64,000 nt of DNA from Candidatus Bathyarchaeia archaeon (GTDB lineage: Archaea; Thermoproteota; Bathyarchaeia; Bathyarchaeales; Bathycorpusculaceae), in assembly GCA_038883655.1 (NCBI GenBank), contig JAVZLQ010000003.1, positions 183,099-247,098 on the forward strand, given 5' to 3'. A model generated the notes under the pieces. It saw nothing but the letters and a program-made list of their open reading frames with translations, did not search any database and had not been told where the DNA came from. The position numbers and the translations under genes were made by a program. Below are positions 2,071-22,527 of the stretch, in pieces. Every line of letters starts with the position of its first letter. Within the stretch, counting starts at the first letter, position 1.

Positions 2071-3330
2071 TTAACCTACAAGTTTAGTAATGGCATCCGC
2101 CTTTTTCCTATCTTCTGCCAGATACTCAATCATTTCAGCATCCAAATCAAGCCATTTTGTAAGCCCAGCAGCCATGTTAACATTATTCTTGAATATTATC
2201 TTGAGGTAGGGAATTATCTCCTTTGATGCCCTATTTGCGGATATGTGGCATTTCCGCTTAATCTTTTGCCCAATGCTTAGTTGCATCGCACGCTCAGCTT
2301 TGGACCTAGACAACATCTGTATGCGCGTTGGGAATTTGAATGGAATGAATCCACGAGTCTTCGTGTTTTGTCTAGCCATCGCGACACCAGCGGTCATGAA
2401 ATCGATAACATAACGTGTGAAACTCCAATCTTGTGTGGAGCGTATTCTCCCCCTATAAACGTCCGCCATGGAAAGCGCGTCCATAGCCCTTGCCAAATCA
2501 TGAGGGTCGGTTAAGTGTGCTGGAACATTCTCATAAATCCATTCAAAAAGCATATCGATGTCAGCATCAGCCATGTCAACCGCTTGCTTTGCACCACTAC
2601 AAGTGCGCGCATAAATTATCATCCTTAAAACGTTAAAAATAGTGTCTTGCCTATCCCTATAACCAAGCCAAGAAACATCATTATATGTCAGTCTCTTCTT
2701 ACCTTGAGCCAATGCTTGAAGGTCATTAACCGCCGAGCGAACATCACCTTCTGAACGCTGCGCAATAAACTTTAAAGCATCATCGTCAGCTTGTATTCCC
2801 TCGCGGATGCATATACGCTTCAAATGCTTCATGACTTCGCTTGCTGGAGGCTTCTTAAACTCTATTAGTAGGCAGTAGTTGCGGAGATTGGCAAACCTCG
2901 GGTCATAAGCGTTGTTTGCAATCAAAACTATTGGACATTGGGCAGTTTTAACAATGTCTGTTATGGCTTTAACTCCGCCCTTGTCGGCTGTTCCCGTGAT
3001 CCCGTCAAGCTCATCTAAAAGTATAATTCTTTTGCCGCCGAAAAGCGAACCGTACTGCGAAGCTAAACCAGCAAAACGATTAATCGCCTCTTCAGTCCTA
3101 TAGTCGCTTGCGTTTTTCTCAACAAGCTCCATCTTAAAATCAGCGGCAAGAGCCTCAACAGTAACGGTTTTTCCAACACCAGGAGGACCAAAAATGAAGA
3201 CTGCACGCTTTTTGGGTGCACCTTTCTCCCATGATTTTATCCATTCAACAAACGCTTGAATAGCTTCTTTATTTCCAACGATTTCATCTAGGGATTTTGG
3301 CTTGTGCTTAACGGTCCAAGCAGCGTACAA
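2071..3330 (-). CDS. rfcL: Replication factor C large subunit
   Basis: N-terminus WTVKHKPKSLDEIVG, Walker A GPPGVGKT and LLDELDG box. Length 419 aa. Sits directly downstream of rfcS on the same strand. Confidence 0.9.
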   Translation of the reverse strand: MYAAWTVKHKPKSLDEIVGNKEAIQAFVEWIKSWEKGAPKKRAVFIFGPPGVGKTVTVEALAADFKMELVEKNASDYRTEEAINRFAGLASQYGSLFGGKRIILLDELDGITGTADKGGVKAITDIVKTAQCPIVLIANNAYDPRFANLRNYCLLIEFKKPPASEVMKHLKRICIREGIQADDDALKFIAQRSEGDVRSAVNDLQALAQGKKRLTYNDVSWLGYRDRQDTIFNVLRMIIYARTCSGAKQAVDMADADIDMLFEWIYENVPAHLTDPHDLARAMDALSMADVYRGRIRSTQDWSFTRYVIDFMTAGVAMARQNTKTRGFIPFKFPTRIQMLSRSKAERAMQLSIGQKIKRKCHISANRASKEIIPYLKIIFKNNVNMAAGLTKWLDLDAEMIEYLAEDRKKADAITKLVG

Positions 3331-3341
3331 GCGCTTTGCAC

Positions 3342-4322
3342 CTAACTTGCTTTTTTAATTTCGTAACCTGCTTCCACAAGCCTCGCCAACAAAGCACTTA
3401 GCTGGACCTCTTCATCTGCGCCCTCAACAAGCCTATAATCTATATCACCAACGATGTCAGCCAACTTTATTTTCCAAGGTTCTGGAATATCTGCTCTAAA
3501 AATTTCAGTGTGAATTTGCCTAATTATGTCGCTTCCAGCCACACCATACTTTTGAATCATGTCGCGCAGTTGTTTCCTAGCTTCTAAAAAGTCGCCATTA
3601 ATCGCTGTTTCTATCATTTTTTGCACGTCTGCTGGGTGAGCCCTACCAGCAATGGAATAAACAACCTTCGCGTCTACGGGCTTATTAAGCGAGGCGGCCG
3701 CTTGAAGCGTGTTGATAGCCTTTCGCAAATCTCCACCACAAACCTCAAAAATCGCGTCCAACCCATCCTTCAAGAGTTTGACGCCCTCATTTTCCGCTAT
3801 ATGTTTAAGGTATTTGTCATGCTCTTCCCTTGGCAGAAATGTGAAACGGAATGGGGCGCAACGTGACTGTATTGGTTCGATTATTTTTCCGCTGTAGTTG
3901 GCGCATAAAATGAAACGGCATGTTTCAGTGTACCGCTCCATAGTTCGCCTCAAGGCTTGTTGTGCATCAGCAGTCATGTTGTCCGCTTCATCCAAAATCA
4001 TAAGTTTAAATGGTATCTCGCCGATAGATCGCACACGAGCAAACGTTTTAACTGTTTCCCTAACAACGTCTATGCCCCTCTCGTCACTCGCGTTTAATTC
4101 CATGATGTGTTCACGATAGGCTTCGCCATACAAGTCCCTAGCCAAACAAAGCGCAGCAGTCGTCTTTCCAGTACCAGGCGGTCCAGCGAAGATGCAGTGC
4201 GGCACATTTTTGGATTTAACGAAGCTTTTTAACCGCTCAACTATCTCCTTTTGATTAACCATCTCATCCAACGTTTTTGGTCTGTACTTCTCAGCCCACA
4301 TTTCAAAACTCAAAGTTTCCAC
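3342..4322 (-). CDS. rfcS: Replication factor C small subunit
   Basis: WAEKYRPKTLDEMV, GPPGTGKT, LDEADNMT and the SRC motif (QSRCAPFRF). 326 aa. Confidence 0.95.
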   Translation of the reverse strand: METLSFEMWAEKYRPKTLDEMVNQKEIVERLKSFVKSKNVPHCIFAGPPGTGKTTAALCLARDLYGEAYREHIMELNASDERGIDVVRETVKTFARVRSIGEIPFKLMILDEADNMTADAQQALRRTMERYTETCRFILCANYSGKIIEPIQSRCAPFRFTFLPREEHDKYLKHIAENEGVKLLKDGLDAIFEVCGGDLRKAINTLQAAASLNKPVDAKVVYSIAGRAHPADVQKMIETAINGDFLEARKQLRDMIQKYGVAGSDIIRQIHTEIFRADIPEPWKIKLADIVGDIDYRLVEGADEEVQLSALLARLVEAGYEIKKAS

Positions 4323-4376
4323 TCCTCTCCAAACATATTTGACGGAATTGTTAATAAATTTATCAAAAAGGCGCGG

Positions 4377-4756
4377 TTACGTGGATACCACGATTTTGTC
4401 GACGATTAGCGAAGGACACACTATATTACCAAATGTTTTCGGGTCGCCTCCAACAGTAATAACATTATTCAAAGCTTCATATAAGTTTCCAGCAACAGTG
4501 CATGGCTTAATCGGATAGGCAACTTTCCATTTTCTATTTTGAACGCATTGTCAGCGGTTACTGAAAAATCACCAGTTACAGCATTTGAGTGAAAAGCGCC
4601 AATAAGTGAACCTTTTACCAACACGCCATCTTTCAGTTCGCCTATCAAGTCTTCTCCTTTTGCCTCGGCAAAATATGCACCCATTTTTAAAGCATATTGC
4701 ATCGCTTTATCCATTAAGTCTTCTATCTGCGAACCCATGGCGGTCAACTTAAGCAC
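4377..4756 (-). pseudogene. TldD/PmbA-family metalloprotease remnant (large internal deletion plus frameshift)
   Basis: The 95-aa ORF joins a PmbA-like N-terminus (DLMDKAMQYALKMGAYFAEAKGED) directly to the family C-terminus (NAVTGDFSVTADNAFKIENGK). After a 1-nt frame break near 4517 the conserved end continues in another frame (YPIKPCTVAGNLYEALNNVITVGGDPKTFGNIVCPSLIVDKIVVST, stop at 4377-4379). Total is ~125 aa against the ~440 aa I recall for intact members. Confidence 0.55.
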
Positions 4757-4815
4757 TAAATATTTTGTACATGGATTTAAAGCTTAATAAAAGTAAGGGT
4801 TTTCACTTTTTGAAT

Positions 4816-6756
4816 TTATTTTTCTTCCTTTTCAAGAAAGCCCGTCAAGAATATGGCGTATTCGCATGGATGCTCATTTTGAAGCAGAGATTTTATTATT
4901 TTTATTTTCCCTTTTTTGCCGTGACTAACCCTGGAAATAATGTATTCTAGTGTTTTCTTTCGAAGCCCGCATAGCCATGTTTTCTGGCTGGTTTTGACCA
5001 GTTTGTAGTAGGGACAGCTTTTATATTTTAGGGTAAAGCCGCCTTCAAAATATTCTATTTCAACCTCTATACCAAGTTCGCGGTACATATCAATGATTCT
5101 TTCACCAACATCTTTGATGGTCCACGGGTAGTCTTCTGGAAAAAGTGCATCCAACTGCTCTTTTTCAATGGCGAAAGCTTCTTCGATTGAGTTGCATGAC
5201 ATGCCTTCAATGAGTACTTGCATGAGCTTCTTACGAGGTAATGGCTCCAGAACTGGTTTTTCTAAAAGCTTCAGTTTAAAGCTTAGTAGGTTCTGGAATG
5301 TTGCTGTTGAAACTTCGTAGCCTAATTCCTTAAACATGGATTCTATTAGGATGCGTTGGCTGTTCATTACGAGGGGGTCTATCCGCTTAAAAATGATGGT
5401 GAAATGCTCGTCGTCAACAAACCTTACTTCAGCGTCGGACTGCGTCACACTAATGCTTTTGATGATAAAGTTTTTGGAAAGTCTACCAATTTTTTCCTGA
5501 TCTCCCCTGGCAAGCATGCGGATGGCGTTAGAGATGCGAATTCCTGTTGCGCGATATATTTCTTCAAATTTCTGTCTATCGCTTTCGTATACTTTTGCTG
5601 CGAAGGAGTTGAAGAGATCGCGGGGGATTGGAACAACGTCTAGGAATTGTTTTCCTATTATTTGAAAGAGGTTGAGTTCGGCTAGCTGGTCTAAAACACT
5701 TTGGTCTTCCGCACCCACATATTTTATTGTCATGTTCACGTTTGCATGTTCAATTGAATATTGTAAAAGTTTCCACCCACGTGTTGCCAAAATTATTGAA
5801 AATACGGTTACGGCTAGGCGGGCTATCTGGACGGTTGTGACTTGAAAAACTAGTTCTAGCATGTTTTCTTCTTTTTCTGTTAAAACTTTGACTTGCCTAA
5901 ACCAGTTCATTTTTATAAAGGCTGAAAGGATAGCTTTCACGAAGTCTTTTGGCTCTCTTGGAAATTCGCTGATGCCAAGAACAGTTCTAGCATCCTCTAT
6001 GAAGTTACCCAAGTCTGTTACTGGTTCTTCCAAATGTTTCTCAGCCCAGCTCATAAAGGCTGGTCCAACAAGCATCAGCGTGTTTTTAAATAACCCAGGA
6101 GTAACGTTTGCCAGTTCTTTTTCAATCTGCTGTTCTAGAAAATCGCCGAATTCTTTTCTCCTTAATGTGTAAATTTCGGGGCGAATCATCTTTATGACTA
6201 TGTCCTCGCCCATGATTCGTAAGTCAAAATTTACGCCTATGCCCTCCAATATCGTAGCAACTTGAAAGGCAACCATTACGGGTAAACGTTTGAAGACCTT
6301 AGGTCTTAGCACTGCTATGCTGTCGATTTCACTGTATGATGGAATGTCAAAAAGGTTTGTAAGCCCTTTTATCTCTTCTATGACCAGTAGAAACTCTTTA
6401 AAGGTCGATGGCACTTTCCATGCAACGGAACTTTTAAGTATCTCAATTATGTTCTTTGCCTCTGCTTTTTGTTCCCTAATTAGGTCTTCAATTGTTTTGT
6501 TTCCTAGGGCAACTTCTAGGAGGCTGTCAAGGCTCTTCCTACTAATTGATGTTAAGTCAAGCGCCTCTCTCAGTTTAGTTTGCTCATTAATTTTTGCTTT
6601 TATTGTGCAGTCTTCGCAAGAGCCAACTTTATCCACCCTAAGCAGAGTCTCTACAGCTTTCTCGAGAACGCGGCTTTTCGTGCCGTATGTTTTTGCTAGT
6701 TCTTCAAGCATCTCGTTTGTTTTTCTGGTTATTGTTGTGTGAAGATGCACGGACAT
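4816..6756 (-). CDS. Large orphan protein: ribbon-helix-helix-like N-terminus, V4R-like Cys-motif C-terminus (putative ligand-sensing regulator)
   Basis: A long uninterrupted ORF with an ATG start and a TTTAAAA box ~33 nt upstream. The N-terminus HLHTTITRKTNEMLEELAKTYGTKSRVLEKAVETLL fits the strand-helix-helix pattern of CopG/Arc/MetJ. The C-terminus KSCPYYKLV..WLCGLRKKTLEYI..NEHPCEYAIFL resembles the V4R pattern C-P-x-C...C-x-x-x-G...C-E-F. The middle ~500 aa is unrecognised. The CDS is solid but the function call is weak. Confidence 0.5.
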   Translation of the reverse strand: MSVHLHTTITRKTNEMLEELAKTYGTKSRVLEKAVETLLRVDKVGSCEDCTIKAKINEQTKLREALDLTSISRKSLDSLLEVALGNKTIEDLIREQKAEAKNIIEILKSSVAWKVPSTFKEFLLVIEEIKGLTNLFDIPSYSEIDSIAVLRPKVFKRLPVMVAFQVATILEGIGVNFDLRIMGEDIVIKMIRPEIYTLRRKEFGDFLEQQIEKELANVTPGLFKNTLMLVGPAFMSWAEKHLEEPVTDLGNFIEDARTVLGISEFPREPKDFVKAILSAFIKMNWFRQVKVLTEKEENMLELVFQVTTVQIARLAVTVFSIILATRGWKLLQYSIEHANVNMTIKYVGAEDQSVLDQLAELNLFQIIGKQFLDVVPIPRDLFNSFAAKVYESDRQKFEEIYRATGIRISNAIRMLARGDQEKIGRLSKNFIIKSISVTQSDAEVRFVDDEHFTIIFKRIDPLVMNSQRILIESMFKELGYEVSTATFQNLLSFKLKLLEKPVLEPLPRKKLMQVLIEGMSCNSIEEAFAIEKEQLDALFPEDYPWTIKDVGERIIDMYRELGIEVEIEYFEGGFTLKYKSCPYYKLVKTSQKTWLCGLRKKTLEYIISRVSHGKKGKIKIIKSLLQNEHPCEYAIFLTGFLEKEEK

Positions 6757-6797
6757 GACGCTTCACAGGTTATCTTTTGGGTTGGTTGCTTTTAAAC

Positions 6798-6853
6798 ATG
6801 TTCATAAAATGTATTAAATGTACATAAAGAAAGGGGGATGTTGACTTGTCAAC
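6798..6853. promoter_or_regulatory. ATGTNCAT-type motif array plus GTTGAC-TT-GTCAAC palindrome, upstream of the 646-aa gene and at the 3' end of the long GDH
   Basis: ATGTTCAT 6798-6805, ATGTATT 6809-6815, ATGTACAT 6818-6825, ATGTTGAC 6838-6845. Perfect 6+6 palindrome at 6840-6853. Start-to-start spacings are 11, 9 and 20 nt. The array abuts the TTTAAA box of the minus-strand gene. Confidence 0.35.
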
Positions 6854-8627
6854 GTGGCTTTAATGGTGGTACAATAGGGCTGAACGTTGCGCCCTTTCTG
6901 GCTACAAGCGCGTCTGCCACTCTTTTTACGGCCAACATGTAGGCTGCTGTGCGCATGTTCACATTGTACTGTTTTGAGATGTTGAGCACGTCGTAGAAAG
7001 CTTTGGTTATTGTTTCCTTCAGCTTATTCCTAACCTCTTCTTCAGTCCAGTAATAGTTCATTTGGTTTTGCACTTGTTCAAAGTAGCTAACGATTACTCC
7101 ACCGGAGTTGGCGAGAATATCTGGGATTACGAAAACGCCCTTTTTGAACAAAATTTCATCCGCCTCTGGAGTTGTCGGTCCATTAGCTCCTTCTGCAACG
7201 ATTTTAGCTTTTATGTTCGCCGCGTTTTCCTTTGTTATTTGGTTTTCTAATGCCGCTGGAACTAGGATGTCGCATTCCAATTCTAGCAATTGCTCATTTG
7301 TTATAAATGTACTGCCAGGATAGTCAACTACAGAACCAGTTTTCTCCTTGTGAATCAAAACTTTTTCTGGGTCTAAGCCTTCTGGGTTATAAGCGCCACC
7401 TTTTGAGTCTGAAACTGCAATGATTTTGCATCCGATTTCATGTAGTAGGCGCGCCGCATGATAGCCTACATTCCCATAGCCTTGAACCGCAACTGTTGCA
7501 CCTTTGAGGTTTACTCCAAGATGTTTGGCCGCCTCGATGACAGTGTACATCAGCCCCCTTGATGTAGCCTCGCTTCTTCCACGAGAACCGCCCACGTGAA
7601 TGGGTTTTCCCGTTACCACACCGAAGACGGGATAGCCAACTATTTCGCTGTACTCGTCCATTATCCACGCCATCATTTCCGTAGTTGTGTACACGTCTGG
7701 CGCTGGCACATCTGTGAAAGGTCCTATGAACTTCGCTATAGCGCGCACATAGCCTCTTGTCAGGCGCTCAAGCTCAGCCTTTGACATCTCTTTTGGATTG
7801 CACCTAATCCCGCCCTTACCTCCTCCGAGAGGTAAACCCGTTACTGCTGTTTTCCATGTCATCCAAGCGGCTAGGGCTGTAACTTCGTCTAGAGTTAGGT
7901 CTGGATGATATCTTATGCCGCCCTTTGTTGGACCCAAAGCGTCATTGTATTGCACGCGGTATCCGGTGAAAACTTGGATGCTGCCGTCATCCATGACAAC
8001 TGGAATGTTAACGATAAGTGTTCGCATTGGACGCTTCAATATTTCGTGTATGCCTGGGTCTAGGTTCAGTTTTTCGGCAGCCACGTCTAGCTGTTTAAGG
8101 GCGGCTTCGTAAGGGTTTGGCGCGACTGCAATGGGCGCTAACGTATCTACTTTGACAAAAACAGCTGTTTGGAGTTTCTCAATTAGGTTCTTGAGGGTTT
8201 CCTTCGCTACTTCGCCGTTGCCTTCACTGTTTCCATAAAACCATAAGTACGTCTCAATAAGCGCATCCTCCTTCTTAGTAAGGAACGCGCCAGCAGGAGC
8301 CATTTTTGGACTCTCAGAGAAATAGTCAGTGAGAACACGTAACATGTTAAGTTCGTCGCGTGTTAGGGGCAAAAGCTTCTTTATAGGCTCTGGCGCCTTC
8401 ACGTGGACATACTCAGCGTCCATCAGCTTCTTTTGCAATTCTTCAAAGGTTTTTAGAGAATCTTCTATTGGTATGCCGAAGTTTTCAGAGTATGTTGTCA
8501 ACAAGGCATAGTGGGCTGTTGTGTAGCTTTCTATTTTCGCCGTTAACTCCGGTTTCTCGGCGAAGAAGTCCACCATTAGCTTAAGCATTCCTAATTCACG
8601 AGCCGAAAGTTCTACCGAGTTCAACAT
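6849..8627 (-). CDS. gdh: Glutamate dehydrogenase with a ~170-aa N-terminal tandem-repeat extension
   Basis: The core starts at NPYEAALKQLDVAAEKLNLDPG and carries GPTKGGIRYHP, LPLGGGKGGIRCNP and GATVAVQGYGNVG (Rossmann). The likely start is ATG 8627, preceded by GAGGTG. The ORF track starts at TTG 8654. Confidence 0.85.
   Translation of the reverse strand: MLNSVELSARELGMLKLMVDFFAEKPELTAKIESYTTAHYALLTTYSENFGIPIEDSLKTFEELQKKLMDAEYVHVKAPEPIKKLLPLTRDELNMLRVLTDYFSESPKMAPAGAFLTKKEDALIETYLWFYGNSEGNGEVAKETLKNLIEKLQTAVFVKVDTLAPIAVAPNPYEAALKQLDVAAEKLNLDPGIHEILKRPMRTLIVNIPVVMDDGSIQVFTGYRVQYNDALGPTKGGIRYHPDLTLDEVTALAAWMTWKTAVTGLPLGGGKGGIRCNPKEMSKAELERLTRGYVRAIAKFIGPFTDVPAPDVYTTTEMMAWIMDEYSEIVGYPVFGVVTGKPIHVGGSRGRSEATSRGLMYTVIEAAKHLGVNLKGATVAVQGYGNVGYHAARLLHEIGCKIIAVSDSKGGAYNPEGLDPEKVLIHKEKTGSVVDYPGSTFITNEQLLELECDILVPAALENQITKENAANIKAKIVAEGANGPTTPEADEILFKKGVFVIPDILANSGGVIVSYFEQVQNQMNYYWTEEEVRNKLKETITKAFYDVLNISKQYNVNMRTAAYMLAVKRVADALVARKGATFSPIVPPLKPR
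8121..8627 (-). repeat. Tandem duplicated ~85-aa domain encoded at the 5' end of the long GDH
   Basis: Unit 1 is ELSARELGMLKLMVDFFAEKPEL...LLTTYSENFG...SLKTFEELQKKLMDAEYVHVKAPEP. Unit 2 is PLTRDELNMLRVLTDYFSESPKM...LIETYLWFYG...AKETLKNLIEKLQTAVFVKVDTLAP. They are colinear over the whole length. Confidence 0.7.
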
Positions 8628-8659
8628 CTTTTTCACACCTCTGAAGACTAACAAAAGTG

Positions 8660-8707
8660 ATGTTCAACTATAGAAATATTATGTCCATCATGTACATATG
8701 TGTACAA
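8660..8707. promoter_or_regulatory. ATGTNCAT-type motif array in the divergent region between the long GDH and the KaiC-like gene
   Basis: ATGTTCAA 8660-8667, ATGTCCAT 8681-8688, ATGTACAT 8690-8697, ATGTGTACAA 8698-8707. TGTACA recurs at 8691-8696 and 8701-8706, 10 nt apart. Confidence 0.35.
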
Positions 8708-8783
8708 CACGATAAAAAACAAACCAAACCGCAACATAACGTTTTAATAATGCACACAAACTCTTACACACGGTGCACAACCA

Positions 8784-9527
8784 TTGGCAATTAAAAATCA
8801 AGCACTCTATTCAACTGGGATAAAAAGCTTAGATAGACTCCTCGAAGGTGGCTTATTTCTAGGAGAAAATGTTTTATGGGAAGTTGAATCAGGAACCTTC
8901 GCAAGAGAATTTCTTTATTCGTTTATGCGCCAAGGACTATTAGAAGGAAAGCAAGTAATTTACCTAGATTTCATATATCCTCCACAAGCACTTATGATAC
9001 AACTTGAGCCATTAACAAAATCACTTCCAGATGGATGGGAAAAGAAACTTTTAGTATTAGACTGCTTTTCAGAAGCAGCCGGACAAGGCGAACTCATATT
9101 CAGCGACTTTTACGACAAAGCACCACCATGGATTAGAAAAGTTCCAAGCTCCAAAGACCCGGAACGCTTTCACCACTTTTTCGGAAGAATTGAAAGAGAA
9201 TTTGTAACTCCGGGAACAAGACTTGTTTTCAATAGTTTGTCGATTATGGAACACAATTGGGGGAGAGACGCCGTCAAGGCATTTTTCGGACATGTTTGCC
9301 CCGCACTATATGCTTATCAAACTCTCGCTTACTGGACAATGGCGAAGAACGCACATCCCAAAGAGTTTTGCGCAATAATCGAGCACATGACGCAAGTAGT
9401 TATTGACCTTTCAAGACAAGGTGAAAAAAACTTTTTTCAGATAAAAAAAGCTGGCGGAAGATATAATCCGCAAACATATCAGCGGCGAGAGTACACTGTC
9501 AAGGGCTTGCAGATAGACATTTTTTGA
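8784..9527 (+). CDS. KaiC/RecA-superfamily single-domain protein with degenerate Walker A (predicted pseudo-ATPase)
   Basis: STGIKSLDRLLEGGLFLGENVLW matches the KaiC/RadA-like N-terminal pattern (tGi.gLD.lLgGG...G). Where GxxGxGKT is expected the sequence reads VESGTFAR, with no Lys-Thr/Ser. The Walker-B-like strand LLVLDCFS is retained. TTG start. Confidence 0.55.
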   Translation: MAIKNQALYSTGIKSLDRLLEGGLFLGENVLWEVESGTFAREFLYSFMRQGLLEGKQVIYLDFIYPPQALMIQLEPLTKSLPDGWEKKLLVLDCFSEAAGQGELIFSDFYDKAPPWIRKVPSSKDPERFHHFFGRIEREFVTPGTRLVFNSLSIMEHNWGRDAVKAFFGHVCPALYAYQTLAYWTMAKNAHPKEFCAIIEHMTQVVIDLSRQGEKNFFQIKKAGGRYNPQTYQRREYTVKGLQIDIF

Positions 9528-9549
9528 CAGCGTGTGAAAACACGTCTCT

Positions 9550-9604
9550 ATGTACATTCATGTTCATTTTTCACTGTTTCTTAGGGTAATGTTTAAATGT
9601 TGAC
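9550..9604. promoter_or_regulatory. ATGTNCAT-type motif array upstream of the GltB-like gene
   Basis: ATGTACAT 9550-9557, ATGTTCAT 9560-9567 (10-nt spacing), ATGTTTAA 9589-9596, ATGTTGAC 9597-9604. The last octamer is the same as at 6838-6845. Confidence 0.35.
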
Positions 9605-9654
9605 TAAAATTAACCCCTTCATGCCGAAATTTACAAATGTAAAAGGTGAAAGAG

Positions 9655-11262
9655 ATGACTGAACGTGTATTTAGAAACAGTTCTTATCTGAACGGAAAAT
9701 CAACAACCGGAACAACCACACGAGTCAAAGACACAAGCCCAACAAGCGGGATGTGCCCAATATGCATCCGCGACTGTCCAATAATGTGTGAAATTGGACT
9801 TTCAGCCTTCAGAGGAAGAGAAGCCCTATATCCAGAGCCAGTACAATTCGGATACAGCACAGCAGGTGCCCTCAAAGACTTTGGACTGGACTGGTCGCAC
9901 TTCAACATACAAGCTGGACTTTTTGAAGCGTTAGGGATAGAGGAAAATCCTGACGTTGCACTGTTTCCAAACGCAAGCACAGAAACCGTTGTTGCTGGCA
10001 TACCCCTAAAAATACCAGTACTATGTGGCGCTTTCGGCTCAACAGACGTTGCAAGACTGAATTGGGAAGGATTAGCCATAGGCACAGCATTATCAGGCGC
10101 CATAATAATAATCGGAGAAAACGTCTGCGGCATGGACCCAGAAGCACAATTTATAAATGGCAAAGTAACTTACTCGAAAGAATTAAAACGCAGAGTAGAC
10201 TTGTTCAGGAAATTCTGGGACGGAAAATACGGAGACATAGCCGTCCAAACAAACGTTGAAGACCAACGTTTGGGAGTTGACGTCTACGCCATCTCAAAAC
10301 TGGAAGTCAACATCATAGAGAGAAAGTGGGGACAAGGAGCAAAAGCAATCGGAGGCGAAGTCCGCGTAAGAGACTTGCAAAGGGCGATAATGCTAAAGAA
10401 AAGAGGATACATAGTAATTCCAGACCCAGAGGACCCAACAGTACAACAAGCATTCAAAGAAGGAGTCTTCAAATCCTTTGAAAGGCACAGCCGCGTTGGA
10501 ATACCGAAAGAAAAGAACGTGATAGAGGATATAGAATGGCTGCGCGAGCAAGGCGCGAAACACGTGACGCTCAAAACTGGCGCTTACAGACCATCAGCCG
10601 TGGCATACACCCTAAAAATAGCCTCAGAAGCAAAAATTGATGCAGTATACTTTGACGGTGCTGGTGGCGGAACTGGAATGAGCCCTGTTCCAATGATGGA
10701 CGAGATGAGCATACCAACCGTTTACCTAGAAGCGATAGTTCTAAAGTGTGCACAACTGCTGAAAAAGAAGGGCAGATACGTTCCAGACTTGATTATGGCT
10801 GGAGGTTTCATAAACGAAACGCAAATTTTCAAGGCAATAGCCATGAGTAACTTCGGAGACGGGCCATTCGTTAAGGCTGTTCTAATGGGACGCTCACCGT
10901 TAACTGCCGTGATGAAGGCAAACTACTTCAAACAGTTGGCTGAAGAGGGCAAATTGCCGAAAGCTTTCGCAGACAGATTTGGCAACACTCCGGACAAATT
11001 CTTCATCGCAGCGCCAGAGCTGAAAGAAAAGTATGGTGAGCGCTTCAAGGAAATTCCATGGGAAGCAGTTGCGCTTTACACTTACTTGACGGATCGCATA
11101 GGCGTAGGCCTAAAACAACTCTTAGCTGGAAACAGAAAATGGAGGCTGGAGTTAATAAACAGAAATGACCTTATGAGTCTATCAGAAATTGCCGCAAAGG
11201 TAACAGGCATACCGCTACCGCACGAGATTGAAGCAGACGCCATTGAAAGGATATTAGACTAA
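9655..11262 (+). CDS. FMN-dependent glutamate synthase-related protein (GltB domain-2 family, divergent)
   Basis: KWGQGAKAIGGE, FDGAGGGTGMSP and LIMAGGF match the GltS FMN-domain pattern (QGAKPG.GG, G.eGGTGA). N-terminal Cys cluster CPICIRDCPIMC. ATG 9655 follows AGGTGA. The ORF track starts at GTG 9646. Confidence 0.65.
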   Translation: MTERVFRNSSYLNGKSTTGTTTRVKDTSPTSGMCPICIRDCPIMCEIGLSAFRGREALYPEPVQFGYSTAGALKDFGLDWSHFNIQAGLFEALGIEENPDVALFPNASTETVVAGIPLKIPVLCGAFGSTDVARLNWEGLAIGTALSGAIIIIGENVCGMDPEAQFINGKVTYSKELKRRVDLFRKFWDGKYGDIAVQTNVEDQRLGVDVYAISKLEVNIIERKWGQGAKAIGGEVRVRDLQRAIMLKKRGYIVIPDPEDPTVQQAFKEGVFKSFERHSRVGIPKEKNVIEDIEWLREQGAKHVTLKTGAYRPSAVAYTLKIASEAKIDAVYFDGAGGGTGMSPVPMMDEMSIPTVYLEAIVLKCAQLLKKKGRYVPDLIMAGGFINETQIFKAIAMSNFGDGPFVKAVLMGRSPLTAVMKANYFKQLAEEGKLPKAFADRFGNTPDKFFIAAPELKEKYGERFKEIPWEAVALYTYLTDRIGVGLKQLLAGNRKWRLELINRNDLMSLSEIAAKVTGIPLPHEIEADAIERILD

Positions 11263-11332
11263 AACTAACAACCCCCATCCTTTTTTGAAACTCCGAACAG
11301 AACCAAAGTTTTAAAGCCATCAGCAAAGAAAA

Positions 11333-12601
11333 ATGGATGAAGTGGAGAATATGAAAGAACAGCAAACAGCACTTGACGTGGCTCTGGAACAGTTAGAAAT
11401 AGCCGCTGAAAAACTGAACCTAGACCCTGGACTACACGAGATGCTGAAACATCCTAAAAGATCGCTAATTGTTTCCATCACAATAAAAATGGATGATGGA
11501 AACATACGAACATTCAAGGGATGCCGCGTTCAACACTGGGACGCACGCGGACCATTTAAAGGCGGCATACGCTACCACCCGAACGTAACGCTGGAGGAAG
11601 TAACAGCACTTGCCATGTGGATGACCTGGAAATGCGCAGTCGTAGACATTCCATATGGAGGCGCGAAGGGCGGGATATGTTGTAACCCGAAGGAAATGTC
11701 AAAAACTGAGCTTGAAAGACTTACAAGAAGATACACGAGCTTAATTCTTGACTATATCGGACCCTATCGTGATGTACCAGCGCCAGACGTGTATACAGAC
11801 GCACAAACAATGGCGTGGATAATGGACACATACAGCCAATTTAAAGGTTACAGCGTACCAGAATGCGTCACTGGAAAACCAATAAGCGTAGGTGGTTCTG
11901 AGGGAAGAGAAGAAGCCACTTCAAGGGGGGTCGTAATCTGCGCAAGGGAAGCGGCAAAACGTTTAGGCTTAAGATTCAAGGGCGCAACAGTTGCGGTTCA
12001 AGGCTACGGAAACGTCGGGTGGAACGCAGCGAAAATCGCACATGACATGGGATGCAAAATCATTGCGGTTAGCGATTCCGCTGGAGGAATCTATTGTCCA
12101 GACGGTTTAAACCCACGCAAAGTTTACGAACATAAGGCAAAAACTGGCTCAGTAATTAACTATCCAAAATGTAAGAACATATCAAACGAGGAACTGCTTG
12201 AAACAAAATGTGATATCTTAATTCCAGCAGCGCTTGAAAATCAAATAACAAAAGCCAACGCAAACAAGGTAAAAGCAAAAATAATAGTTGAAGGCGCAAA
12301 TGGACCCACAACCCCAGACGCAGACAAAATACTTCAAGAAAAAGGAGTCTTCCTAATCCCAGACATATTGGCAAACGCTGGCGGCGTAACAGCAAGCTAT
12401 TTCGAGTGGGTTCAAAATCTAACAAGAGAACACTGGACACTAGAAGAAGTGAACAGAAAACTCGAAAACATCATGGTGAAGGCATTCAATGACGTTTACA
12501 ACCTAGTGGAAAAAGAAAAAGAGAGCATGCGCACAGCAGCGTTAATGCTCGGCGTCGGAAGAGTAAGCGATGCGATAAAAACGTTAGGGCTATGGCCATA
12601 A
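11333..12601 (+). CDS. gdhA: Glutamate dehydrogenase (canonical length)
   Basis: 422 aa with GPFKGGIRYHP, PYGGAKGGICCNP and GATVAVQGYGNVG. By eye it is about two-thirds identical to the catalytic core of the long GDH. Confidence 0.92.
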   Translation: MDEVENMKEQQTALDVALEQLEIAAEKLNLDPGLHEMLKHPKRSLIVSITIKMDDGNIRTFKGCRVQHWDARGPFKGGIRYHPNVTLEEVTALAMWMTWKCAVVDIPYGGAKGGICCNPKEMSKTELERLTRRYTSLILDYIGPYRDVPAPDVYTDAQTMAWIMDTYSQFKGYSVPECVTGKPISVGGSEGREEATSRGVVICAREAAKRLGLRFKGATVAVQGYGNVGWNAAKIAHDMGCKIIAVSDSAGGIYCPDGLNPRKVYEHKAKTGSVINYPKCKNISNEELLETKCDILIPAALENQITKANANKVKAKIIVEGANGPTTPDADKILQEKGVFLIPDILANAGGVTASYFEWVQNLTREHWTLEEVNRKLENIMVKAFNDVYNLVEKEKESMRTAALMLGVGRVSDAIKTLGLWP

Positions 12602-12739
12602 AAGAAAACTGCTGAACTCGCCTAAACTCAATTATTTCTCCATATAACCTCCACATTTTTAACCTCACAATCTAAATTTTTAAACTACTGCTCTTATATC
12701 CTCTATGCGAATACAGTTCTAGGAAAAGGGAAGGGATAA

Positions 12740-13315
12740 ATGCAAGAAAAATCTTTGCCGAACATTAAAACCTTAGATTTCGAATTTGAAAATCTACCAG
12801 TAAAGGTCATTGCAAACAGGAATTGCCCCGAAATCAAGCTTGTTGGGCTGAATGTTGGACCTTTCGAAGAAGGAAACGTGTATGAAGCCCCGTTTTGGGT
12901 TGCAAAGGAACTGGAAAAGGCGGGAATTGTCCGCTTTCGTGAAGAAGAACTTTTGGATTCAAGAAGGATTTACAAGATTCAGTGGATGGAACGTGTCCAA
13001 ACGCCAAGCCAAATATCGAAGCTTCCAGAGAATTTTTACCCAAAACTGCGCAGGTATTTAGTGGAGCTAAAGAAGGTCTCAGCAAAATCTCCAGAAAAGA
13101 TGAGGGAGTACGAAAAAAGTATGCAAGTGGTACGCGACATGATTAATGCGCGTCTAAAAAAGATTGTTGCGCTGGCAACTGCAAATTTTGGACAAACTGA
13201 GCAGATTTTGAAGAACCTCACATTCGAGGAAAGGCTAATTTATGAACGTTTGCGCAAACTTATTCACGGTTGGAAAGCCAAAATACTGGAGCATGAAGAG
13301 GGGCTGGAAGAATGA
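12740..13315 (+). CDS. gins23: GINS subunit, Gins23-type
   Basis: 191 aa. A small beta-rich N-terminal part (GPFEEGNVYEAPFWVAKELEKAGIVRF) precedes a helical C-terminal part. Its stop overlaps the MCM start (13312-13315). Gins23 upstream of mcm is the arrangement reported for Sulfolobus. Confidence 0.6.
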   Translation: MQEKSLPNIKTLDFEFENLPVKVIANRNCPEIKLVGLNVGPFEEGNVYEAPFWVAKELEKAGIVRFREEELLDSRRIYKIQWMERVQTPSQISKLPENFYPKLRRYLVELKKVSAKSPEKMREYEKSMQVVRDMINARLKKIVALATANFGQTEQILKNLTFEERLIYERLRKLIHGWKAKILEHEEGLEE

Positions 13316-15360
13316 CTGGAGAGTTAGAAGTTATAAATCCTCAAGAGCAGTTCCAAGAATTCTTTAAAACAGAAAAGTACAGACAAAAAATTGCGCAGTT
13401 GGCTGTTGCAGGCAAAACATCACTAATAGTAGATTTTGAAGACCTCCTAATCTTCGACAACAAACTTGCAGAAAAACTACTTGAAAAACCAGACGAGTAC
13501 TTACAATATGCTAATAACGCGGCTTATTCGCAACTTGAAAGTGAAGATCCAGAATACGCCGAAAGGCTCGTAAGCAAACGGGAAACATTAACGGTCAGAA
13601 TCGCTAAGCTGTTAGAAGCAACGCCGCTAAGAAAACTTGGTTCAGACCACATTGGAAAACTTGTGATGATAGAGGGCATCGTAGTACGCTCAACACCAGT
13701 ACGCCCAATGGTTATACGGGCAGCATTCAAATGCAGAAGATGTGGAGAACTATCATTCGAGGATCAAACAGGACAATTCCTAAAAGCACCATTCAAATGC
13801 AGAAACTCAGAATGCGGAGCAAAGGGTCCATTCGACTTCATTCAAGAAGAATCTGCATTCATAGACTCACAAGAACTACGCGTCCAAGAAAGACCAGAAG
13901 ACCTTCCACCAGGTCAGCTTCCAAGAACCTTGCACATTAAGCTTGTCGGGGCAGAAATAGTTGATGTTGCAAGACCTGGAGACCACGTTTCCATCGTTGG
14001 CATAGTTCGTGTTGTTGCTCCCTCACTCCCAAGAGTTGGAAAGCTTCGCACTTTCAGACTTCATTTGGATGCAAATTCTATAGAAGTTTTAGGTAAAGAG
14101 CCTGAAACGGCGCTTCCATCACCAGAAGAAGAGGAAAAAATCTTGGAGCTGGCAAAGGATCCATGGATACATAGGAAGATAATAAATTCAATTGCACCTT
14201 CAATCTATGGTTACGACCACATAAAAGAAGCGATAATGTACCTTCTCTTCGGCGGAGTCCCAAAAAATCTTCCAGACATAACGATAAGGGGCGAAATAAA
14301 CGCCCTTCTAATAGGCGACCCAGGAACAGCCAAATCGCAACTGCTACAGTACGTGGCAAGAGTTGCACCTAGAGGATTATATACTTCTGGACGCGGAACA
14401 ACAGCAGCTGGCTTAACAGCAGCAGTAATACGCGAAAAAGGCGGAGGAATGAGTCTTGAGGCTGGTGCTTTGGTTTTGGCTGATAAGGGAATTGCGTGTA
14501 TTGACGAGATGGATAAGATGCGTCCAGAAGATAGAGTTGCAATTCACGAGGCAATGGAACAGCACACGGTTTCAGTTGCGAAAGGGGGTATTGTGGCAAC
14601 GCTAAACGCTAGAACAGCCATTCTTGCGGCTGCAAACCCCACTTTAGGAAGGTATGTGCCACATCGCACAGTTGCTGAAAACATCTCCTTGCCAGTTACG
14701 ATACTCTCCAGATTTGATTTAATCTTCATTTTGAGGGATGTGCCAAACAAAGAAATGGACAGCAAAATGTCAGAGCACATCCTAGAAATGCACAGAAAAG
14801 GTTCAAGTCCCACCGAACCACCAATACCATTAGATTTGCTACGCAAATACATAAGCTACGCTAGAGGCATAAAGCCAGTTTTAACTAAAGAAGCATTACA
14901 GCGCCTCAGAGACTTCTATTTAGCAATGCGCTCAACAACAGAATCAGAAAGCTCGCCAGTCGCAATTACAGCCCGCCAACTTGAATCACTTGTGCGTATA
15001 GCAGAGGCAAGAGCCCGAGCAGCATTAAGAAAGGAAGTTCTGGCTGAAGACGCAGAAGCTGCAATTGCGATAATGAAACGTTCGCTTGAAGAGGTTGGCA
15101 TAGACGTTTCTTCATTCAAGCTTGACATAGACATAATAATGACTGGAAAACCAAAAAGTGCGAGGGACAAGCTGCAAGTGATAATTTCGAAGCTTATGGA
15201 GATGGAGAAAGAAACAGGAATCGTTGAAAGGGAAGCGCTTATAGATGAATTGGAAAGTAAATACAAGATTCCGCGAGCTGAAGCAGAACGCCTCATAGGG
15301 CAGTTGTTGCGAGAAGGAACAATATACGAGCCTAGAGAAGGTTATCTAAAGAAAACGTAG
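13312..15360 (+). CDS. mcm: MCM replicative helicase
   Basis: Zn motif CRRCG...CRNSECG, Walker A GDPGTAKS, Walker B CIDEMDKM and arginine finger SRFDLIF. 682 aa, with no intein-sized insertion. Confidence 0.95.
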   Translation: MTGELEVINPQEQFQEFFKTEKYRQKIAQLAVAGKTSLIVDFEDLLIFDNKLAEKLLEKPDEYLQYANNAAYSQLESEDPEYAERLVSKRETLTVRIAKLLEATPLRKLGSDHIGKLVMIEGIVVRSTPVRPMVIRAAFKCRRCGELSFEDQTGQFLKAPFKCRNSECGAKGPFDFIQEESAFIDSQELRVQERPEDLPPGQLPRTLHIKLVGAEIVDVARPGDHVSIVGIVRVVAPSLPRVGKLRTFRLHLDANSIEVLGKEPETALPSPEEEEKILELAKDPWIHRKIINSIAPSIYGYDHIKEAIMYLLFGGVPKNLPDITIRGEINALLIGDPGTAKSQLLQYVARVAPRGLYTSGRGTTAAGLTAAVIREKGGGMSLEAGALVLADKGIACIDEMDKMRPEDRVAIHEAMEQHTVSVAKGGIVATLNARTAILAAANPTLGRYVPHRTVAENISLPVTILSRFDLIFILRDVPNKEMDSKMSEHILEMHRKGSSPTEPPIPLDLLRKYISYARGIKPVLTKEALQRLRDFYLAMRSTTESESSPVAITARQLESLVRIAEARARAALRKEVLAEDAEAAIAIMKRSLEEVGIDVSSFKLDIDIIMTGKPKSARDKLQVIISKLMEMEKETGIVEREALIDELESKYKIPRAEAERLIGQLLREGTIYEPREGYLKKT

Positions 15361-21309: not shown

Positions 21310-22527
21310 TTAAACCTTCTTTTTCAGTGTTGTGAAACATATGTTATTCTTGATTTTGCTGCCGATGGCAAAAAGCGCAGAGTGTAGTTTGGTAAGACCT
21401 TTTTTGAACTTTTCCACAAGCATAAATCTTTCAATGCAAATGATTAACAATATATAGAAAAGCATCCACGTTAAGAAGTATAACTCGCCATACGTATCAT
21501 GAAAAGTTAGTGCCGCTTGGCTTCCACTATTAAGTCCTATTATTAGGATGGATGCCACCCGCAAAACATTTACGAAGTATGTTCCAAAAAATCCACAAAT
21601 GAAATATACAGCCTTTCTAAAACTCGAAAATTCTGAACGCTTGAAAAACACGAAAATTATTAGCACATAAAGAATTAAACTGTGAACACCAGAACAAGGC
21701 CAGTCCACAGTCGCACTATAACTAGCACCACCATAACGCACAGTCAAAAGAGGAAGCTTATAACCGGGTCTTGCTGGGTATGGGAAACTCAACACAACAG
21801 TGTAGCCTAGTATGTGGAGTAAAGCGGCTGATAAGGCTGTTGTTGGAAAAGTAATAAGCAGATGCACGGATAACTCCGATGGATAAAGTGTATTAATCAT
21901 ATATGCAGCAGTGATAACACCTAGCAGTGAAATTGAAATGGAAAACGTTTTCAATCCCAGCAGTCCATACGCAAAAATCACAGCTAACGTAAAGGATAAC
22001 CATAAAACAAGGTATTCGATGGACAATGGCCAGTGAAACGTTAAAAGGCTTTCTCGATCTACAGGCTCATTGACTCCCAAGTATTGACCAAGATCAAGAA
22101 TCACTTTAGTGGCACCCGGAATGGCGTTTACAAAAATGATGTACATCGTCGGTATCAGCAAACAAAAAATTCCTATTGCTAAGCGTTTAGTTGGTTTTTT
22201 ACAGAGAATTTGATCTCGGCTAGTTATGAATTCTATAAAGAACAGCCATACAAAAAACAAATAAAACATACGTCCTTTCCACGTTTCTTCAAAGACGAAC
22301 CTTGATGGAACAAAATTTGGCCAAGTTTTCACGTTAAAATATTGGAAACTTTCAATATCAAGGTAATCTATGACAAGCAACAGGGCTACTGGAAGCACTA
22401 GTAACAACAAAAAAACTGTATGAAATGAATATTTCCTCAAATTACTGAAAATTGTATTTTTGAATACTGCTTTCAAATTCGCTAGCCTCAGCGAGTTTAA
22501 TATTTTTAAGGGTATAAAAGCATTCAT
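21310..22527 (-). CDS. Archaeosortase/exosortase-family polytopic membrane protein
   Basis: Multi-TM protein carrying the family's Cys-Arg-His signature in order: VDWPCSGVHSL, then FVNVLRVASIL, then TFHDTYGE. The ATG overlaps the upstream gene's stop (ATGA at 22524-22527). Confidence 0.55.
   Translation of the reverse strand: MNAFIPLKILNSLRLANLKAVFKNTIFSNLRKYSFHTVFLLLLVLPVALLLVIDYLDIESFQYFNVKTWPNFVPSRFVFEETWKGRMFYLFFVWLFFIEFITSRDQILCKKPTKRLAIGIFCLLIPTMYIIFVNAIPGATKVILDLGQYLGVNEPVDRESLLTFHWPLSIEYLVLWLSFTLAVIFAYGLLGLKTFSISISLLGVITAAYMINTLYPSELSVHLLITFPTTALSAALLHILGYTVVLSFPYPARPGYKLPLLTVRYGGASYSATVDWPCSGVHSLILYVLIIFVFFKRSEFSSFRKAVYFICGFFGTYFVNVLRVASILIIGLNSGSQAALTFHDTYGELYFLTWMLFYILLIICIERFMLVEKFKKGLTKLHSALFAIGSKIKNNICFTTLKKKV

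Follow-up and report, generated by a model that had tools for sequence, protein, structure and literature searches.

The window, a 64 kb stretch of a metagenome-assembled genome of Candidatus Bathyarchaeia, contains a block of five adjacent genes. They encode X646, a protein of 646 aa (positions 4816-6756, minus strand); GDH-L, a long glutamate dehydrogenase (GDH) of 592 aa (6849-8627, minus strand); iKaiC, a KaiC-like protein of 247 aa (8784-9527, plus strand); a GltS-like protein of 535 aa (9655-11262, plus strand); and GDH2, a canonical GDH of 422 aa (11333-12601, plus strand). The genes were called from the listing of open reading frames (ORFs) and from Pfam and NCBIfam scans. Three window proteins are identical to the NCBI entries MEM3695287.1, MEM3695289.1, and MEM3695291.1. 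X646 is MEM3695287.1, whose NCBI name is "hypothetical protein", and the KaiC-like protein is likewise "hypothetical" in public records. Of the four intergenic regions in the block, three contain phased arrays of ATGTACAT-type boxes. The first three genes, here called the trio, and these boxes are the main subject. Conserved synteny and an operator shared across phyla support a functional link among the trio genes.

Conservation of the trio in Bathyarchaeia and Asgard archaea

The scan of one genome per species yielded 76 loci, which come from Bathyarchaeia and from Asgard lineages labelled Promethearchaeota, Hermodarchaeota, and Thorarchaeota. A further protein search found X646 homologues labelled by NCBI as Hodarchaeota, Odinarchaeota, and Jordarchaeaceae. 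Neighbourhoods were counted by tblastn with the window proteins, at the loci with enough flanking sequence. GDH-L is directly upstream of X646 in 55/55 loci of Bathyarchaeia and in 9/9 of Asgard. The KaiC-like gene is divergent from GDH-L in 51/51 and 9/9 loci, respectively. The conserved order is therefore the KaiC-like gene, divergent from the long GDH gene, which is followed by X646; this synteny is directly established. The GltS-like gene is in the locus in 38/46 cases in Bathyarchaeia and 0/9 in Asgard. GDH2 is present in 35/46 (absent from 11/46) and 0/9 loci.

The trio stays constant while the flanking genes change, which indicates that the conserved unit is the trio and not the five genes. 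The sequence-only reading had linked all five genes and had named co-localisation in other genomes as the check. For the trio, the check came out as proposed in both phyla. For the GltS-like gene, the link stands in Bathyarchaeia, where the gene carries the boxes, but it does not extend to Asgard. GDH2 is never accompanied by paired boxes, so that this part of the five-gene proposal was not borne out.

The surroundings of the block vary. RFC and GINS-MCM genes flank it in most Bathyarchaeia, the block is inverted in some genomes, and unrelated neighbours are found in others. In several genomes (among L001, L023, L024, L038, and L040), GINS-MCM is directly downstream of X646, a sign of inversion or movement of the block with respect to the replication genes. 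At L068, from an uncultured member of Bathyarchaeia with 49% identity, the trio is kept and rearranged. GDH-L is on the opposite strand there, the KaiC-like gene is co-oriented with X646, and the boxes are still upstream of GDH-L. An aminotransferase gene is near the trio in one locus.

In Asgard, a Pat-like acyl-CoA-synthetase/GNAT gene follows X646 in 10/11 loci with downstream sequence. The loci noted for the acyl-CoA-synthetase/GNAT gene are L059, L060, L062-L065, L067, L069, L073, L075, and L079. In the example L080:10155-12926, an NDP-forming acyl-CoA synthetase and a GNAT acetyltransferase are fused into one protein of 923 aa. We take this fusion to be the architecture of the bacterial Pat/YfiQ protein acetyltransferases. 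The region upstream of the fusion gene in L080 showed no paired boxes, and the flanking genes of one Asgard locus have none.

Operator boxes at the promoters of the block

In the window, ATGTWCAT has 12 strand-matches, against 3.8 expected, and 0/100 shuffles reach 12. The sole paired boxes in the 64 kb are at 6799-6824, 8661-8706, and 9551-9566, in agreement with the motif arrays that had been read from the sequence in three of the four intergenic regions. The fourth region, 11263-11332 upstream of GDH2, has no boxes. Other ATGTACAT copies, at 22139 and 24852, were set aside since they are single and inside ORFs. A TGTACA at 4766, downstream of X646, was also dismissed; it is single and not conserved in other loci.

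The X646 promoter/operator (6790-6824, minus strand) consists of a TATA-like GTTTAAAA at 6790-6797, abutted at TATA/BRE by boxes in 10-bp register. These are TGAACA at 6799-6804, a degenerate box at 6809-6814, and TGTACA at 6819-6824. The divergent control region of GDH-L and iKaiC (8661-8749, assigned to neither strand) contains four boxes and two TATA boxes. The GDH-L TATA box, TTTCTATA, is at 8669-8676 on the minus strand. Box 4 (8661-8666) is just downstream of it, and boxes 3, 2, and 1 (8682-8687, 8691-8696, and 8701-8706) follow each other with a spacing of 9-10 bp. The iKaiC TATA box, TTTTAATA, is at 8742-8749. The GltS-like promoter (9551-9598, plus strand) has TGTACA at 9551-9556, TGTTCA at 9561-9566, and a TATA-like TTTAAAT 25 bp downstream, at 9592-9598.

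The conservation, geometry, and specificity of this operator are directly established. In 1.33 Mb of related loci, 127/127 paired arrays are in intergenic regions of the block and 0 are elsewhere. The GDH-L promoter of every lineage has three boxes (TGTACA or TGAACA/TGGACA), 9-10 bp apart, and then BRE/TATA. The TATA box is TTTCTATA, or TTTGAATA in Asgard, and a fourth box, TGAACA, is immediately downstream. The strict pattern of three boxes, TATA, and the fourth box is present in 58/66 distinct upstream regions, from both phyla; the remaining 8/66 have the same layout by eye, with slight differences. At the X646 promoter, TGAACA abuts TTTAAAA in Bathyarchaeia, with TGTACA ~20 bp upstream, and in Asgard the TATA box is flanked by TGTACA boxes. 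In nearly all Bathyarchaeia, the GltS-like gene has two boxes ~25 bp upstream of its TATA box. Boxes also go along with relocated GltS-like genes (L058 and L071).

The flanking replication genes allow another view of the arrays, namely, as elements of a replication origin. In the window, the genes for the RFC large subunit (2071-3330, minus strand) and small subunit (3342-4322, minus strand) are on one side of the block, and those for GINS (12740-13315, plus strand) and MCM (13312-15360, plus strand) are on the other, as in most loci of Bathyarchaeia. This view was rejected as hardly credible. Asgard loci have the arrays without flanking replication genes, and the arrays keep fixed distances from the TATA boxes of specific genes and accompany the GltS-like gene where it has moved. 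Nor was an Orc1/Cdc6 gene seen beside them.

The GltS-like gene belongs to the box-carrying gene set in Bathyarchaeia only. Its ORF opens at GTG 9646, and ATG 9655 follows a GGTG. The start is probably ATG 9655, giving 535 aa, which fits the lengths of homologues; the GTG start is probably wrong. The protein has an N-terminal cysteine motif, CPICIRDCPIMC. Pfam Glu_synthase matches it with 38.6 bits against a cut-off of 20.4, and the match is partial, covering profile positions 186-296 (111/369, less than a third of the model). The description of the gene as a divergent GltB-type gene is thus sustained by a score above the cut-off and qualified by the partial coverage. There is no match among NCBIfam families or PDB sequences. 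No glutamine-amidotransferase or GXGXG partner gene is beside it in the gene tables of the called loci. With a match to part of the FMN domain, the protein is best called a putative glutamate synthase relative only.

GDH2 is canonical, as had been proposed. The ELFV_dehydrog_N and ELFV_dehydrog domains are found in GDH-L and GDH2 with Pfam E values of 1e-57 to 1e-88. With 644 and 577, the NCBIfam GdhA_Arch scores of the two proteins stay under the equivalog cut-off of 750. None of the loci examined has paired boxes at GDH2, and L040 has a single TGTTCA. GDH2 is preceded by an oligo-T tract after the GltS-like gene and by its own TATA box. These features indicate that GDH2 is a neighbour of the unit and not a member.

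The sequence-only reading had seen in the five genes a switch between assimilatory flux, through the GltS-like protein and one GDH, and catabolic flux, through the other GDH, with the dead KaiC as a scaffold. The five genes are adjacent in 35-38/46 loci of Bathyarchaeia. The position of the GltS-like boxes relative to TATA differs from that at GDH-L, so that opposite regulation is possible. No direct support for the switch was found, however, and it appears improbable. GDH2 stands outside the box-carrying set with a promoter of its own, both the GltS-like gene and GDH2 are gone from 9/9 Asgard loci and from several loci of Bathyarchaeia that keep the trio, and, in the called loci, the GltS-like gene has no amidotransferase or GXGXG partner as a neighbour. 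For GDH-L, a catabolic role agrees better with the gene context than a switch between assimilation and catabolism does. This is indicated by the Thermococcus-type GDH, the aminotransferase in one locus, and the Pat-like gene in Asgard.

X646 as a candidate regulator

X646 had been described as an orphan. This description is not upheld; 486 proteins are homologous to it at E <= 0.001. The best 120 of the 486 are 71-93% identical, Asgard homologues are ~50% identical, and the range over Bathyarchaeia and Asgard is 49-93%. Clustering of the full-length family at 50% gives one representative. JGI automatic names for the homologues include "CopG family antitoxin". In comparison with Pfam, NCBIfam, and PDB sequences, X646 has no match at normal thresholds.

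Domain-level similarities are directly observed at both ends of the protein, where an N-terminus like ribbon-helix-helix (RHH) proteins and a V4R-like C-terminus had been predicted. Both matches are at the predicted places and are sub-threshold. RHH_3 matches aa 6-40 with E 0.004-0.02 and 15-17.5 bits, against a cut-off of 21.6. In hhalign comparisons with hand-entered template sequences, the N-terminal profile aligned with CopG (P 66%, pairwise E 5.7e-5), with the whole strand-helix-helix in register, and with the NikR N-terminus (P 30%). In the AlphaFold2 (AF2) model, residues 1-10 are unstructured and are followed by helices 11-24 and 27-40 and then by a helical region. G25, between the two helices, is invariant, distant relatives included. 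Two helices joined at a conserved glycine are what is expected of RHH proteins, in which the strand is expected only in the dimer. The strand residues H4, H6, T7, T8, and I9 are invariant, alongside boxes conserved in both phyla. An invariant CxxC (C47 and C50; window positions 6607-6618) is directly after the RHH-like region (aa 1-40), and the same CxxC is found in the paralogues P0123, P0125, P0128, and P0137.

At the C-terminus, MetOD1 matches aa 555-635 with E 0.004-0.015 (best E 0.0036, 17.8 bits against a cut-off of 23.8). The V4R family itself does not match. MetOD1 is a relative of V4R/H-NOX and shares with V4R a cluster of three conserved cysteines (PMC5847659). The V4R/MetOD1-like module of X646 (aa 547-637; 4846-5118, minus strand) was delimited from the MetOD1 match below cut-off and from invariant columns. 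Across 58 sequences from the two phyla, C581, C596, and C631 do not vary, nor do H629 and E632, so that the C-terminus has the three-cysteine cluster of V4R/MetOD1. The CxxC and this cluster together could form a metal or redox site.

The AF2 model made with Asgard sequences added has pLDDT 71 and pTM 0.40; an earlier model from 19 close homologues (pLDDT 49) was too poor for use. The model contains four alpha-beta-beta-alpha-beta-beta modules, at aa 119-190, 269-346, 420-497, and 547-637. hhalign found no internal repeats at the sequence level, despite the similarity of the four modules in the model. Foldseek searches with the model gave recurrent weak matches to H-NOX (E 0.09-0.2, prob 0.84-0.94) and Bet3 (prob 0.9), with overall E 0.09-0.5. 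The H-NOX and Bet3 structures presumably belong to the same fold group as V4R.

Distant proteins of ~500 aa share only the N-terminal part of X646, ~190 residues. Three of them (P0151, P0153, and P0163) end in a response-regulator receiver domain. Such fusion of the N-terminal ~190 aa to receiver domains indicates that this region acts as a signalling output module; it would represent a type of output domain so far undescribed in archaeal-type two-component systems. The paralogue P0128 (493 aa) has the same strand (RLHTTIS) and a GSCDDC motif and is without the C-terminal module. It is located on two metagenome contigs (L082:4366-6405 and L083:119-6854), divergent from receiver-domain and histidine-kinase genes and upstream of HdrA-like and MvhD/FlpD-like genes. 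Pairs of ATGTGCAT, 19 bp apart, are upstream of P0128's own gene and of the HdrA-like gene. The motif has 5 matches against 0.33 expected, and 0/200 shuffles reach 5. X646 has the same arrangement; in both cases, boxes of related sequence stand at the promoter of the regulator and at that of a neighbouring gene. As the two contigs are closely related, they count as one additional case only.

With moderate confidence, we consider X646 a CopG-like, autoregulated one-component regulator of a probably catabolic GDH-L, working through phased hexamer boxes. The most plausible binder of the operator is a sensor-regulator whose N-terminus is RHH-like and whose C-terminus is V4R/MetOD1-like. RHH dimers bind tandem short subsites, as in MetJ, omega, CopG, and Arc. 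The N-terminus of X646 would bind the TGTACA or TGAACA/TGTTCA hexamers, probably with one dimer per box, and cooperative binding is possible as the boxes are about one helical turn apart. Archaeal regulators repress from sites over or downstream of BRE/TATA and may activate from upstream sites, as known for SurR, TrmBL1, and Ptr2. At GDH-L, where three boxes abut BRE/TATA and the fourth is directly downstream, occupancy would block TBP, TFB, or RNA polymerase and lead to repression. The box that abuts or flanks X646's own TATA box implies autorepression. At iKaiC and, in Bathyarchaeia, at the GltS-like gene, boxes ~15-35 bp upstream of TATA would fit activation or looping. The four modules of X646, the last of them V4R/MetOD1-like with the three-cysteine site, may sense a ligand or partner that reports on the glutamate/2-oxoglutarate node.

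The boxes may instead be bound by another regulator, for example, a global one for nitrogen or carbon. X646 would then be a non-DNA-binding scaffold, chaperone, or enzyme partner of GDH-L and iKaiC, with an N-terminus that is merely RHH-like. The sub-threshold RHH evidence and the lack of structural or PDB relatives of X646 are in line with this, and a 6-bp palindrome every 10 bp could presumably suit helix-turn-helix dimers too. Still, it is rather unlikely. The pattern is that of a local autoregulator, with the paired arrays confined to the block in the 1.33 Mb and present, in each lineage, at the promoter of X646 itself. The same-strand paralogue shows the same arrangement with a related box, and relatives fuse the same N-terminal module to receiver domains.

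Several points weigh against X646 as the regulator. All its RHH and V4R assignments are below curated thresholds, RHH_3 is detected at E <= 0.1 in 2/33 family members only, and the CopG comparison used a hand-entered template sequence. There are no PDB sequence relatives, Foldseek against PDB gave nothing at E <= 0.001, and the model of pTM 0.40 does not have the N-terminal strand formed. The paralogue evidence comes from two closely related contigs. The box search reached only ~10 kb on each side of each locus, which bounds the set of controlled genes. The sign of regulation and the ligand are read from geometry and gene content only, and, as far as the sequences tell, a regulator encoded elsewhere could bind the boxes.

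GDH-L, iKaiC, and comparison with known systems

The GDH-L ORF (6849-8654) opens at TTG (8654). An ATG at 8627 follows a GGTG Shine-Dalgarno-like element and is probably the start, giving 592 aa; the mechanical TTG start is probably wrong. Homologues are 583-596 aa long and open at the same ML..VEL motif. The core, aa 170-575, aligns end to end with the hexameric Thermococcus GDH 1bvu (E 8e-167), and ELFV domains begin at about aa 200 of the 592. The N-terminal extension of ~169 aa contains a tandem duplicated domain (8133-8609, minus strand), with repeat 1 at aa 7-81 (8385-8609) and repeat 2 at aa 88-165 (8133-8366). The duplication, already suspected from the sequence, is confirmed by hhalign between the repeats (P 98%, E 1.7e-13). 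The extension is found in 65/65 long GDHs, those of Asgard at 43-47% identity. Pfam and PDB profile searches found no relative of it, and a homologue search with the extension alone returned 13 fragments, all in GDH context, and nothing else.

The iKaiC family profile matches KaiC structures with E 8e-9 over aa 5-102. The Pfam KaiC score, 23.8, is just under the cut-off of 26.6, and PAXNEB matches the first 70 residues above its cut-off (36.5 against 28). No match was found to the MEDS or DUF835 families. The SGTGKT of KaiC is aligned with ESGTFAR of iKaiC, with the changes G>F, K>A, and T>R. The loss of the P-loop lysine, which had been noted for the window protein, is general; the Walker A lysine is missing in 60/60 homologues. 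The FEE of KaiC, which we take to be its catalytic glutamates, is aligned with FIY. The destruction of Walker A and of the glutamate pair in this 247-aa protein indicates an inactivated KaiC and not an ATPase. The protein is 57-91% identical across the aligned loci. KaiC domains that have lost their activity turn up repeatedly in archaea as signalling modules (PMC5847659).

The dead KaiC and the tandem domain of GDH-L would be obligate partners, probably as adaptor or sensor and docking site. Their strict pairing suggests, at the level of sequence, that both proteins take part in sensing. It is then conceivable that the trio acts mainly after translation. A complex of GDH-L (via the tandem domain), iKaiC, and X646 would control enzyme activity, and the boxes would keep the proportions. 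The strict co-occurrence, the identity of iKaiC, the extension in every long GDH, and the recurrence of inactivated KaiC domains as archaeal signalling modules (PMC5847659) would suit such a complex. hhalign finds no domain common to the GDH-L extension and segments of X646, and the layout of the operator around TATA argues for genuine control of transcription. As the main mode of action it is therefore very improbable; it is compatible with X646 as a transcriptional regulator of GDH-L and not exclusive of it.

We infer X646 to be the box binder, and the sign of its regulation, its ligand, and its protein contacts are likewise deduced. An extension of this proposal joins the three proteins in a physical sensing complex. 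The tandem domain of GDH-L would dock on an iKaiC ring and pass the substrate or cofactor state of the enzyme to the RHH regulator. Such a circuit would be of the "trigger-enzyme" kind, following the KaiC-hub principle of archaea. It would be ancient or mobile enough to be found in both Bathyarchaeia and Asgard, and it would be extended in the latter by the Pat-like acetyltransferase. The proposal is speculative, and we regard it as rather unlikely.

X646 is comparable to the CopG/MetJ/Arc/omega repressors in its short N-terminal strand-helix-helix and in the short, partly palindromic boxes about one helical turn apart over the promoter, its own promoter included. It differs in having ~600 extra residues (a helical part and the alpha-beta-beta-alpha-beta-beta units) and in acting, as proposed, at archaeal BRE/TATA. 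As it misses the Pfam RHH cut-offs, it is a putative member of the family. The three invariant cysteines, with His/Glu, resemble the V4R/MetOD1/H-NOX sensors (the bacterial phenol sensors PoxR, MopR, and DmpR, and the MetOD1 response regulators of methanogens; PMC5847659), and the weak fold matches to H-NOX and Bet3 agree with this. In contrast to these, the module of X646, with its score below the Pfam cut-off, is fused to an RHH-like region and not to AAA+/HTH or a receiver, and three further modules are without detectable sequence relatives.

iKaiC shares with MEDS/DUF835 and Elp4/PAXNEB the KaiC/RecA fold, the destroyed ATPase motifs, and the genomic link to a regulator. Unlike MEDS/DUF835, it is a stand-alone protein of 247 aa, strictly paired with an extended GDH. 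KaiC-like proteins were reportedly described by Makarova et al. in 2017 (cited in PMC5847659) as "signal transduction hubs" of archaea. GDH-L corresponds from aa 170 to 575 to the hexameric GDHs of Thermococcales (1bvu, 1gtm, and 1euz), which are without its ~169 extra N-terminal residues and their tandem repeat of no known relative.

In Bacillus subtilis, the catabolic GDH RocG is a "trigger enzyme" coupled to GltC, a LysR-type regulator of a glutamate-synthase-type gene. The trio and the GltS-like gene would resemble this in coupling a probably catabolic GDH to a transcription factor for a glutamate-synthase-type gene, a coupling that would follow here from synteny and the shared operator. 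The proteins are unrelated, and the GDH here has an extra tandem domain and a dead KaiC. NrpR is the 2-oxoglutarate-responsive repressor of methanogen nitrogen genes and controls glnA, nif, and amt, not GDH. It is similar as an archaeal repressor whose operators overlap promoters at the nitrogen/glutamate node. It differs in protein family and operator, and no NrpR-like domain was found in X646.

The module is built of parts of known kinds, namely, a repressor logic of the RHH type, a sensor similar to V4R, and a KaiC without its activity; the architecture, the trio, and the operator are new. Text searches of the literature, which covered the gene set, TGTACA together with GDH promoters, and extended Asgard GDHs, returned no description of the unit, in accord with the earlier supposition that it is undescribed. 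Few Bathyarchaeia and Asgard archaea are cultivated, and the control of transcription in them has therefore hardly been explored. The module offers a candidate regulator-operator pair with clear geometry at archaeal promoters, which is testable in vitro with recombinant protein and synthetic DNA. It also proposes a function for a protein family that public records list as "hypothetical", flags a tandem domain without relatives on a central enzyme of amino-acid fermentation, and provides a further example, strictly conserved, of an inactivated KaiC with a metabolic link. Should the three proteins also interact, gene expression would be coupled to the state of an enzyme in a new way, and this in the lineage closest to eukaryotes.

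An Rfam scan of 4300-12800 gave no RNA family match. Downstream of X646, some relatives (L003 and L005) have a PmbA-TldD gene pair, of which the window keeps a deletion remnant only. This remnant (4380-4715, minus strand) consists of PmbA codons 1-24 (4644-4715) fused to TldD residues ~390-481 (4380-4654), in two frames.

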